64,000 nucleotides of DNA from Escherichia coli 042 (GTDB lineage Bacteria > Pseudomonadota > Gammaproteobacteria > Enterobacterales > Enterobacteriaceae), in NCBI RefSeq assembly GCF_000027125.1, contig NC_017626.1; one strand, written 5' to 3'. The notes under the pieces were generated by a model. The model was not told the origin of the DNA and made no database searches. It worked only from the letters and a program-made list of their open reading frames with translations. Positions 19,077 to 41,317 of this stretch are shown one piece after another. The translations under genes and the position numbers were made by a program. Positions within the stretch are counted from its first letter, which is position 1, and every line of letters starts with the position of its first letter.

Positions 19077-19400
19077 CTACAGGCGGTGGCGATAATCGCT
19101 GGGAGTGCGATCAAACTGCCGACGGAAAACGCGGGAGAAGGTCTGCTGCGAGACATAACCCAGGTCCATTGCGATATCAAAAATCGGACGCTCGGTGGTG
19201 CGTAACTCAACGGCGGCCAGTAACAGGCGGCGTTGGCGAATGTAATCACCAAGTGTCTGATGCGTCACCGTGCGGAACATCCGCTGTAAGTACCACTTTG
19301 AATAGCCTGATTTTTTTGCGACGACATCAATGTTAAGCGGCTGGTCAATATGCTCGTCAATCCATGCGATAAGATCCTGAATAATTTTCTGATGGGACAT
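19077..19400 (-). CDS. soxS: AraC-family superoxide-response activator SoxS (107 aa)
   Basis: Translation MSHQKIIQDLIAWIDEHIDQPLNIDVVAKKSGYSKWYLQRMFRTV... Confidence 0.95.
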   Translation of the reverse strand: MSHQKIIQDLIAWIDEHIDQPLNIDVVAKKSGYSKWYLQRMFRTVTHQTLGDYIRQRRLLLAAVELRTTERPIFDIAMDLGYVSQQTFSRVFRRQFDRTPSDYRHRL

Positions 19401-19485: not shown

Positions 19486-19950
19486 ATGGAAAAGAAATTA
19501 CCCCGCATTAAAGCGCTGCTAACCCCCGGCGAAGTGGCAAAACGCAGCGGTGTGGCGGTATCGGCGCTGCATTTCTATGAAAGCAAAGGGTTGATTACCA
19601 GTGTCCGTAATAGCGGCAATCAGCGCCGATATAAACGTGATGTGTTGCGATATGTCGCAATCATCAAAATTGCTCAGCGTATTGGCATTCCGCTGGCGAC
19701 CATTCGTGAAGCATTTGGCGTGTTGCCCGAAGGGCATACATTAAGTGCGAAAGAGTGGAAACAGCTTTCGTCCCAATGGCGAGAAGAGTTGGATCGGCGC
19801 ATTCATACCTTAGTGGCGCTGCGTGACGAACTGGACGGATGTATTGGTTGTGGCTGCCTTTCGCGCAGTGATTGCCCATTGCGTAACCCGGGCGACCGTT
19901 TAGGAGAAGAAGGCACAGGCGCACGCTTGCTGGAAGATGAACAAAACTAA
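19486..19950 (+). CDS. soxR: MerR-family redox-sensing regulator SoxR, [2Fe-2S] (154 aa)
   Basis: Translation [49 protein letters not shown]...; C-terminal [14 protein letters not shown] cluster. Confidence 0.95.
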
Positions 19951-20083
19951 AGCGCCACAAGGGCGCTTTAGTTTGTTTTCCGGTCTTTGTCTTTCTCTCT
20001 ATCCCGCTGGTACACAGGAGGGTTTCCCCCGACGTCAACACACCTCATTCGAGCACGTGGTGGAGGTTCCGGTTGGTGTTGAT
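19944..20083 (-). ncRNA. ryjA: Putative small RNA RyjA; position inferred from K-12 synteny, not from a diagnostic sequence
   Basis: The soxR-ghxP spacer (546 bp) matches K-12, where ryjA abuts the soxR 3' end on the opposite strand; strand and ends are from memory. Confidence 0.3.
19949..19980. terminator. Rho-independent terminator at the soxR 3' end, probably bidirectional
   Basis: Hairpin aaagcgcc-acaa-gggcgcttt followed by a T-rich run. Confidence 0.65.
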
Positions 20084-20495
20084 GCTTTAATTGTATGTCA
20101 CCGGCGTTTCTTCGCCAGTGTAAAAGTACACTTTTTAGCCGCAATATTTTTGTCATCTCAGACGATTTTTTATCGCAATCCTGAACGGTATGCGGCTCGA
20201 TAACGCTGCAATCTTGCGCATCGACGATAACGTTTGCGCATCAATTGCCTGGTTTTTCATCGTCAAGACAATAAAAGAGAAAAAAGCAGCAAACTTCGGT
20301 TGAAAAAGCCGCTATGATCGCCGGATAATCGTTTGCTTTTTTTACCACCCGTTTTGTATGCGCGGAGCTAAACGTTTGCTTTTTTGCGACGCACCAATTT
20401 GTCGCAAACCTGGAGCAGGAAGATAACGTTTCGCTGGCAGGGGATTGTCCGCCACGCATCTTGACGAAAATTAAACTCTCAGGGGATGTTTTCTT

Positions 20496-21845
20496 ATGTC
20501 TACGCCATCAGCGCGTACCGGCGGTTCACTCGACGCCTGGTTTAAAATTTCACAACGTGGAAGCACTGTCCGTCAGGAAGTGGTTGCCGGGTTAACAACG
20601 TTTCTGGCGATGGTCTACTCGGTTATCGTCGTTCCAGGCATGTTGGGTAAAGCGGGCTTCCCGCCTGCGGCAGTTTTCGTTGCGACCTGTCTGGTTGCCG
20701 GACTCGGTTCTATCGTGATGGGTCTGTGGGCTAATCTGCCGTTGGCGATTGGTTGCGCCATCTCCCTGACGGCGTTTACCGCATTCAGTCTGGTGCTGGG
20801 GCAACATATTAGCGTACCTGTCGCGCTGGGTGCCGTGTTCCTGATGGGTGTGCTGTTTACGATAATTTCTGCCACGGGTATTCGTAGCTGGATTTTGCGC
20901 AACTTGCCGCACGGTGTGGCGCACGGCACGGGGATCGGTATCGGTCTGTTCCTGCTGCTGATTGCTGCGAATGGTGTCGGTCTGGTGATTAAAAACCCGC
21001 TTGATGGTCTGCCCGTTGCGCTGGGTGATTTCGCGACCTTCCCGGTGATTATGTCACTGGTAGGTCTGGCGGTGATCATCGGCCTGGAAAAACTGAAAGT
21101 CCCTGGTGGCATTCTGCTGACCATTATCGGTATCTCAATTGTCGGTTTGATCTTCGATCCTAACGTCCATTTCTCCGGCGTTTTCGCCATGCCTTCATTG
21201 AGCGATGAAAACGGCAATTCACTGATTGGCAGCCTGGACATTATGGGCGCGCTGAATCCTGTAGTCCTGCCAAGCGTTCTGGCGCTGGTGATGACGGCAG
21301 TATTTGATGCCACCGGAACTATCCGCGCCGTCGCCGGTCAGGCGAACCTGCTGGATAAAGACGGGCAGATCATCGACGGCGGTAAAGCACTGACCACTGA
21401 CTCCATGAGCAGCGTTTTCTCTGGCCTGGTGGGTGCAGCTCCGGCAGCGGTATACATCGAGTCTGCGGCGGGTACGGCGGCGGGCGGTAAAACCGGGTTG
21501 ACGGCTATCACCGTTGGCGTGCTGTTCCTGCTGATTCTGTTCCTCTCTCCGCTCTCTTACCTCGTTCCGGGGTATGCAACGGCTCCGGCGCTGATGTACG
21601 TTGGCCTGCTGATGCTGAGTAACGTGGCGAAAATCGACTTTGCTGATTTTGTTGATGCGATGGCGGGTCTGGTTACGGCGGTATTCATCGTGCTGACCTG
21701 TAACATCGTAACAGGCATCATGATCGGCTTCGCGACTCTGGTGATTGGTCGTCTGGTTTCCGGCGAATGGCGCAAGTTGAACATCGGTACGGTCGTTATC
21801 GCCGTGGCGCTGGTGACCTTCTATGCGGGTGGCTGGGCTATCTAA
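20496..21845 (+). CDS. ghxP: Guanine/hypoxanthine permease GhxP (NCS2 family, 449 aa)
   Basis: Translation [50 protein letters not shown]...; polytopic membrane protein. Confidence 0.9.
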
Positions 21846-39169: not shown

Positions 39170-41317
39170 TTACGCCAGTGCCGCTTCGCGCAGGCGAGTT
39201 TTCAACTTGTTGTACTCGTCAATCACGTACTGCTCGGCGGCGCGCTGATCGGCGATCGACTCGACGCGCACGGCGCAGTATTTGTATTCCGGCGTTTTCG
39301 TAATCGGGCTTAAGTTTTCGGTAACCAGCTCGTTACAGGCACCAATCCACCACTGGTAGGTCATATAAATCGCCCCTTTGTTCGGACGATCGCTGACCTG
39401 CGCACGGGTGATAATTTTGCCTTTACGCGAGTGCACCCAAACCAATGCCTCATCTTCAATACCCAGACGTTTGGCGTCTTCGGTATTGATTTGTGCGTAG
39501 CCAGGTTCATCAGCCAGCGCCGCCAGTGCCGCACAGTTACCGGTCATCGAACGGCAAGAGTAGTGACCAACTTCACGCACCGTTGACAGTACCATCGGAT
39601 ACTCGTCGGTGAGTTTGTCGATTGGCGCTACCCAGTCGCAGGTGAAGAACTGCGCCAGACCGTTCGGGGTATCAAACTTCTCTTTAAACAGATAAGAAGT
39701 CCCCTGATCGGCATCTGAAGTATCGCGGCAAGGCCACTGAATGAAGCCCAGTTCGCCCATTTTCTCGTAAGTCGCACCGTAGAAATCCGGGCACAGATGA
39801 CGCAACTCATCCCAGATCTCCTGGGTGTTGTTGTAGTGCATCGGATAACCCATACGAGTGGCAATTTCACTGATGATTTGCCAGTCCGTTTTCAGATCCC
39901 ATTTCGGTTCAACTGCTTTGAAGAAACGCTGGAAGCCACGGTCAGCCGCAGTAAACACGCCTTCATGCTCGCCCCACGACGTTGACGGTAAAATAACATC
40001 CGCCGCCGACGCGGTTTTGGTCATAAAGATGTCCTGAACGATAACCAGTTCCAGATCTTCAAAGGCTTTACGTACTGCCGACAGCTCCGCGTCAGTTTGC
40101 AGCGGATCTTCGCCCATAATGTACGCGGCACGCACTTCGCCATGCGCTGCGCGGTGCGGCAGCTCGCTGATGCGATAGCCGGTATGCGCTGGCAGGCTTT
40201 CCACGCCCCAGGCTTTGGCGAATTTCTCGCGGTTAGCCGGATCTTTCACGTACTGGTATCCCGGATACGTATCCGGCAGCGCGCCCATATCGCAGGCACC
40301 CTGCACGTTGTTCTGACCACGAACCGGGTTTACACCCGCATGCGGCTTACCGAGGTTACCGGTCAGCATCGCGAGGCTGGTCAGAGAACGCACGGTTTCC
40401 ACGCCCTGGTAGAACTGGGTTACACCCATGCCCCACAGGATGGCGGCGCTTTTCGCCTGGGCATACATCCGTGCCGCCTGACGAATCTCACTGGCGCTGA
40501 CGCCGGTGATATCTTCAACCGACTCCGGCGTGTAGCCTTCAACGATTTTACGATACTCTTCAAAGCCTTCTGTACGGGAAGCGACGAATGCTTTGTCGTA
40601 CAGATTTTCTTCAATAATGACATGGCCCATCGCATTCAACAGCGCGATGTTCGAGCCGTTTTTCAGTGCAATGTGGATGTCCGCAATGCGCGCGGTTTCA
40701 ATTTTGCGCGGATCGCAGACGATAATTTTCGCCCCGTTACGTTTAGCGTTAATTACGTGATTCGCCACGATTGGGTGGGAATCCGCCGGGTTGTACCCGA
40801 AAACGAACACTAAATCGGTATTATCAATTTCGTTAATAGCATTGCTCATTGCGCCATTACCGACCGATTGGTGCAGACCTGCAACCGATGGGCCGTGTCA
40901 GACACGAGCGCAGCAGTCAACGTTATTGGTACCAATAACGGCGCGCGCAAATTTTTGCATTACATAGTTGGTTTCGTTACCCGTACCACGCGAGGAGCCG
41001 GTCGTCTGGATGGCATCCGGACCGTACTTCTCTTTGATGGCGCTCAGGCGCTCGGCAACGTAATTCAGTGCCTCATCCCAGGAAACAGGTTCGAGTTTGC
41101 CGCCACGCTGGCGACGGATCATGGGGGTTTTCAGGCGCGGGGTCAGGATCTGGGTATCGTTAATGAAATCCCAGCCATAATAACCCTTCAGACACAGGGT
41201 ACCCTGGTTGGTTTTCCCCTGCGCTGCCTCCGCCCGGACGATTTTGCCGTTATCGACGACCAGGTTGATTTTGCAACCTGATGCGCAATAGGGGCAAACC
41301 GTGACGACTTTTTTCAT
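39170..41317 (-). CDS. fdhF: Formate dehydrogenase H (selenoprotein, 715 aa); in-frame UGA at codon 140 is read as selenocysteine
   Basis: Track ORFs 40898..41317 and 39170..40849 are one 716-codon frame joined through TGA at 40898..40900; N-terminal CPYCASGC Fe-S motif; SECIS hairpin directly 3' of the UGA. Confidence 0.95.
40858..40897 (-). promoter_or_regulatory. SECIS stem-loop directing selenocysteine insertion at the fdhF UGA
   Basis: mRNA sequence CACGGCCCAUCGGUUGCAGGUCUGCACCAAUCGGUCG immediately after the UGA matches the known fdhF SECIS. Confidence 0.85.

Follow-up and report, generated by a model that had tools for sequence, protein, structure and literature searches.

The ryjA (sraL) small RNA gene convergent with soxR in Escherichia coli 042

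The ryjA locus and its shared terminator

The window (the whole 64,000-nt stretch of the E. coli 042 chromosome analysed here) carries, according to its list of open reading frames, soxS on the minus strand (19077..19400), soxR on the plus strand (19486..19950; also from annotation) and ghxP on the plus strand (20496..21845). On the minus strand between soxR and ghxP lies a 141-nt small RNA (sRNA) gene with its 5′ end at 20083 and its 3′ end at 19943, placed by Rfam and by identity with K-12; it is transcribed from 20083 toward its convergent neighbour soxR, where it ends, the last 8 nt of soxR overlapping its 3′ end. When the whole window was searched against Rfam 15, 19943..20083 (−) matched the sraL model RF01408 with 153.3 bits (E = 1.1e-34; curated gathering score 39 bits) over model positions 1–142 of 142, without truncation. 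All 141 of its 141 nucleotides are identical to the annotated ncRNA ryjA of K-12 MG1655 (b4459), which the curated record places, as ‘small RNA RyjA’, at 4277926..4278066 (−). Judged by its sequence, the stretch 19943..20083 (−) is an exact copy of the known E. coli small regulatory RNA gene ryjA/sraL, an ordinary chromosomal gene of this species, the discovery of which in E. coli in 2001 is credited to Argaman et al. and Wassarman et al., as cited in PMC3753932. No arguments against this identity were found.

An earlier note on this DNA had placed a probable RyjA sRNA at 19944–20083 on the grounds of synteny, and had proposed alignment with K-12 ryjA as a check. The full-length Rfam match and the alignment bear the proposal out, with the same synteny and the same 8-nt overlap, an agreement well past what chance would give. 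The K-12-like length that it had ascribed to the soxR–ghxP spacer was also correct, the soxR stop codon and the ghxP start being 545 nt apart in both genomes. Its extent was right at the 5′ end (20083) and one base short at the 3′ end (19943), which is trivial. The note had further described an RNA of about 140 nt on the opposite strand, starting at the soxR 3′ end; strand and length hold, but the RNA starts at 20083 and ends, rather than starts, at soxR.

In comparison with K-12 RyjA/SraL (b4459; RF01408), the 141 nt, the strand relation, the neighbours (soxS, soxR, ryjA, ghxP, in the same order), the 8-nt overlap and the terminator are all the same, and the promoter sequence is the same apart from SNPs in the flank. 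Nothing differs inside the gene, and the differences lie in the flanks: the 117 nt upstream contain four SNPs, and a further three lie downstream, within soxR. The SoxR proteins share 152 of 154 residues, that of the window differing at I40V and G74R.

PGAP-annotated E. coli genomes, including the closest relative of the window, list no gene at the ryjA position. Because the curated K-12 record does annotate ryjA, this reflects annotation practice and is an annotation gap, not the absence of the gene. Since the position is left empty there, labelling 19943..20083 (−) as ryjA is a useful annotation fix; otherwise the assignment matters little.

The 3′ end of ryjA and the end of soxR meet in a perfect hairpin (19944..19974, both strands), which serves as the intrinsic terminator of RyjA and is terminator-like at the soxR end on the plus strand. 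Its arms (19944–19956 and 19962–19974) form 13 fully complementary base pairs around a 5-nt loop, and the soxR stop codon TAA (19948–19950) sits within the left arm. The perfect hairpin that the earlier note had reported at 19949..19969 is the inner, GC-rich 8-bp core of this structure (AAAGCGCC-ACAAG-GGCGCTTT); perfect it is, but the full stem is longer. On the plus strand, the segment 19925–19995 folds with −30.4 kcal/mol (z = −5.2), and none of 200 shuffled sequences was equally stable. On the minus strand, a terminator scan found the 13-bp stem followed by a T-run, in agreement with a Rho-independent terminator of RyjA with six GC pairs in the stem and TTTT/TGTTCATCTT after it; among 90 distinct homologs this stem is either unchanged or altered by compensated changes. 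The hairpin escaped the plus-strand scan for a soxR terminator, because the 8 nt past the stem (GTTTTCCG) contain four T and the tool requires five. That the terminator is common to soxR and SraL, as the earlier note had also held, is stated by Viegas 2007 (PMC2190706). One DNA palindrome ends both soxR (+) and ryjA (−), and the locus illustrates neatly how a protein gene and a convergent sRNA can have a palindromic terminator in common.

Promoter, conservation and fold

Upstream of ryjA, a sigma-S-type extended −10 region can be read at 20087..20095 on the minus strand, 6 nt from the 5′ end of the gene, with TACAAT at −12..−7 (20090–20095) followed by TAA at −6..−4 (20087–20089). This is the sole conserved block upstream of sraL across genera (consensus CTACACTTAAAG). 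At the level of sequence, the mapped 5′ end thus has the TAYACT-like −10 with downstream TAA that marks the sigma-S type, in agreement with the RpoS-type element of Silva et al. (PMC3753932), in which TAA likewise follows the −10. A scan for sigma-70 consensus promoters returned none for ryjA. The tool depends on a good −35, which sigma-S promoters frequently do without, so that the null result does not count against a promoter here; it fits a weak −35. In Salmonella, RpoS binds the SraL promoter in vivo, RpoS dependence was established by ChIP and a lacZ fusion, and an rpoS mutant has about 500-fold less SraL (PMC3753932). For E. coli K-12, PMC12266141 reports induction of RyjA in stationary phase and lists it as under RpoS control.

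The 1.2-kb soxR–ryjA region was present in 5420 of 5426 complete E. coli genomes. The 141-nt ryjA was at least 99% identical in 5400 of these 5420, as against only 749 genomes in which the whole 1.2-kb region was at least 99% identical, and the sRNA is therefore more constrained than its flanks. Three matches to the region in complete E. coli assemblies were on plasmid-labelled records, and some genomes had two copies. In the urinary isolate E. coli strain 405 (NZ_CM132948.1; positions 3001–3700 of the extracted locus), an IS200C element (tnpA) lies inside ryjA, between ghxP and soxR, inserted at about RNA nt 112 (about 19972 in the window), at the 5′ foot of the terminator hairpin. It is a natural disruption of ryjA and an example of IS200 inserting beside a hairpin.

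For homologs outside E. coli, species-representative genomes were scanned once with the conserved 17-mer GTCGGGGGAAACCCTCC, which returned 120 loci from a species set that is, by this choice, somewhat biased. A sraL homolog was recognised by nhmmer in 101 of the 120 loci, in about 30 genera of Enterobacteriaceae (Escherichia, Citrobacter, Enterobacter, Klebsiella, Kosakonia, Cedecea, Buttiauxella, Leclercia, Lelliottia, Atlantibacter, Franconibacter, Shimwellia, Mangrovibacter and others). About 19 matches to the 17-mer in unrelated genomes (Desulfovibrio, cyanobacteria, archaea) gave no sraL by nhmmer and were ignored as chance. The 13 most divergent loci all scored above the Rfam gathering score over the full model (76–149 bits), and homolog lengths ranged from 131 to 165 nt. 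The longest is that of Cedecea neteri (positions 410–574 of its locus; 117.6 bits against Rfam), which reaches 165 nt because of a GT-rich insertion of about 24 nt in the variable loop of the 5′ domain (region of RNA nt 23–36).

soxR adjoins the homolog in 100 of the 101 loci, always in convergent orientation, and its stop codon falls 0–120 nt outside sraL in most genera. Citrobacter sedlakii NBRC 105722 (positions 698–2532 of its locus) has a full-length sraL (149 bits) but no adjacent soxR: at its 3′ end sraL overlaps the end of a gene for a LysR-family regulator, and its upstream neighbour, as in Salmonella, is a GST gene. The sRNA gene is thus kept even where soxR, its customary neighbour, is not next to it.

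The Rfam consensus structure was projected onto an alignment of 91 sequences and the pairs were counted. Standard pairs occupied 94.6% of cells, compared with 39–52% when the partners were slid by one to three columns, and the observed covariation score was reached by none of 500 shuffles. Compensatory double changes occur in nine pairs, of which four belong to the 5′ long-range helix, three to the hairpin of nt 65–82 and two to the terminator. Helix 5 and the start of helix 6 fall in the 17-mer used for fishing, are invariant by construction and are uninformative, and helix 3 (nt 31–34 with 37–40), paired in only 76.6% of cells, is doubtful. The sraL fold, with a 5′ domain with its long-range helix, central hairpins and an A-rich linker, is supported by covariation.

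The 5′ domain (20035..20082, minus strand, as are all segments that follow) is closed in the Rfam structure by a 7-bp long-range helix (RNA nt 2–8 with 43–49); 96% of the cells of this helix are paired, and in four of its seven pairs both partners have changed in a compensatory manner between genera. It contains the conserved block CCGGAACCUCC (RNA nt 12–22; 20062..20072), a candidate seed present in 81 of the 91 species; apart from a 2-bp Rfam helix (14–15 with 21–22) the block is mostly unpaired, with a mean predicted unpaired probability of 0.56. Local duplex prediction places the segment complementary to the tig leader, CACGUGCUCG, at RNA nt 25–34 (20050..20059). In the Rfam structure, the central domain (19989..20033) consists of two adjacent hairpins, at nt 55–64 and 65–82, enclosed by a 3-bp helix (51–53 with 93–95); the second has three pairs with double changes, and the first lies inside the fishing 17-mer and is uninformative. 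The A-rich (ARN)x linker (RNA nt 84–117; 19967..20000), delimited from a published motif and the alignment, includes the 16-mer GAAAGACAAAGACCGG, which is intact in 75 of the 91 species and has an unpaired probability of 0.81. An (ARN)x motif for the distal face of Hfq has been reported at RyjA nt 84–117 (PMC5575007), and the linker is probably a binding site for this face, as predicted from its sequence. The putative Hfq-binding modules, namely the 3′ hairpin with its U-tail and the A-rich nt 84–117, are both present and conserved.

Proposed function and competing readings

The explanation that we favour is that the locus is the E. coli ryjA gene and that its RNA has the RpoS-induced, Hfq-associated, trans-pairing function that we infer from published work on the family; we hold this explanation as a whole with a probability of roughly 0.93. 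In this scheme, RNA polymerase with RpoS would transcribe RyjA at entry into stationary phase or under osmotic stress, and Hfq would stabilise the RNA, probably via the 3′ U-tail and the (ARN)x linker. Turnover would involve poly(A) polymerase, PNPase and the degradosome, and RyjA would act in trans through short, imperfect base pairing. In Salmonella, SraL decays faster without Hfq. E. coli RyjA is polyadenylated and is strongly stabilised in a pcnB mutant, its decay being dependent on polyadenylation (PMC5389530). Against the proposed mechanism counts an overexpression screen in E. coli, which recorded no biofilm or motility phenotype for RyjA (PMC4606813).

A different route of action, in cis on soxR and either beside or instead of action in trans, is the least improbable of the competing readings, and we consider it very unlikely. 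By this route the two transcripts, complementary across the terminator, would form a substrate for RNase III or interfere with each other at the level of transcription, linking the RpoS and SoxR responses. The geometry of the locus suits such a link, with 8 nt of soxR coding sequence overlapped, the entire 31-nt hairpin common to both genes, and the convergent arrangement kept wherever soxR adjoins sraL (100 of 100 loci); it has been suggested that RNase III may cut in the SraL terminator that overlaps that of soxR (Viegas 2007, PMC2190706). Yet if both RNAs end at the hairpin, each complementary copy is already folded on itself. In addition, the position of the soxR stop codon outside the sRNA in most genera and the retention of sraL without soxR in C. 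sedlakii both speak against a cis role, and no experiment in the literature searched found an effect on soxR.

The reading that there is no independent RNA gene at all, and that the stretch comprises only the soxR 3′ UTR and terminator together with upstream regulatory DNA of ghxP, conserved for those roles, could draw on the position of the hairpin at the soxR stop codon, on its strong fold on the plus strand and on the empty PGAP annotation. Against it stand the full-length match to a curated sRNA model, the compensatory changes in helices well apart from the terminator, the conserved and correctly placed −10 element of the minus strand, the full-length sraL kept by C. sedlakii without soxR, and the detection of the transcript in both E. 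coli and Salmonella (PMC3753932, PMC5389530). It has next to no probability left and is effectively refuted already. The proposal that RyjA is a small mRNA or a dual-function RNA, encoding a 26-aa peptide (MRCVDVGGNPPVYQRDREKDKDRKTN) from RNA nt 36–116, is just as improbable: the window copy does hold an AUG-initiated 26-codon reading frame, but no Shine–Dalgarno sequence can be read upstream of it, only 30 of 91 homologs have a start codon that aligns with its own, only 26 of 91 combine a start codon with at least 20 open codons, and indels among homologs of 131–165 nt break the frame, and the small-protein reading was rejected as not conserved.

For the favoured reading, that of a trans-acting ryjA, the characterised ortholog is SraL of Salmonella enterica serovar Typhimurium, which belongs to the same family and shares with RyjA the position convergent with soxR, the RpoS-type promoter features and the terminator. 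The upstream neighbours differ, being the GST gene STM4267 in Salmonella (PMC3753932) and ghxP in E. coli. In Salmonella, the 5′ part of SraL pairs with the tig leader over 7 + 3 bp just upstream of the ribosome-binding site, and repression of tig by SraL has been proven with compensatory chromosomal mutations (PMC3753932). By pairing with the rho leader, SraL also averts premature termination by Rho (Silva 2019, cited in PMC6582626, PMC12360218 and bioRxiv 2024.02.02.578684). All validation of tig and rho as targets comes from Salmonella, not from E. coli. Following this precedent, RyjA would lower trigger factor synthesis by pairing just upstream of the tig ribosome-binding site, and would mask the rut site in the rho leader, so that Rho would spare its own mRNA from premature termination. 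A further likeness is to SdsR (RyeB), which is also RpoS-dependent, accumulates in stationary phase, is conserved among enterobacteria, pairs in trans and is associated with Hfq (PMC3753932), but differs in sequence, locus and targets (ompD and others); the analogy is one of regulation only.

The RNA of the window was compared with the K-12 tig and rho leaders in local windows of 16 × 16 nt, with shuffled sRNAs as controls. The top local duplex with tig joined SraL 25–34 (CACGUGCUCG) to tig −29..−19 at −16.4 kcal/mol, a stability equalled by 19 of 40 shuffles. Its geometry, with 7 bp and 3 bp separated by a 1-nt bulge and placed some 12 nt ahead of the Shine–Dalgarno sequence, matches the published Salmonella site, and the 7 + 3-bp pairing is thus reproducible with E. 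coli sequences. The energy is indistinguishable from that of shuffles and would speak for consistency only, in that the predicted site exists in E. coli. Since it does exist, the same repression of tig by RyjA as in Salmonella is likely in E. coli, by analogy. The rho duplex (13 bp, SraL 35–47 with rho −243..−231) was not significant, 16 of 40 shuffles being as stable. Full-length duplex prediction against the two leaders gave unrealistic whole-molecule duplexes, no better than shuffles, and was discarded.

Uneven conservation of the pairing segments

The tig seed region (nt 23–36) is the least conserved part of sraL, with a mean identity to the window base of 0.51 in the 91-sequence alignment. 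The tig-pairing 10-mer (nt 25–34) is intact in 9 of 91 species, and CCGGAACCUCC (nt 12–22) in 81. Given the poor conservation of this segment, repression of tig may be limited to the Escherichia/Salmonella/Citrobacter group; the alignment suggests that the family-wide function would use other elements. Over about 30 genera, CCGGAACCUCC and the GUCGGGGGAAACCCUCC hairpin of the central domain hardly vary, but for the hairpin this is built in, because the 17-mer there was the search pattern for the species set. It is conceivable, at rather long odds, that the ancestral function of SraL uses these two elements on another target or protein partner and that tig is a lineage-specific addition; one or other of them may already be the known rho-pairing site. 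For studies of the core function of this sRNA, the weak conservation of its validated tig seed in comparison with other parts of the RNA gives a modest lead.

Other Rfam matches in the window lie away from ryjA. About seven were to naRNA4 (REP/BIME-type repeats), with five in tandem at 27321–27664, two at 38199–38382 and one at 61043–61120. A SECIS_2 selenocysteine insertion element (Rfam, 87.1 bits) was found at 40851–40905 (−); it implies a selenoprotein gene on the minus strand, probably that of formate dehydrogenase H (fdhF).
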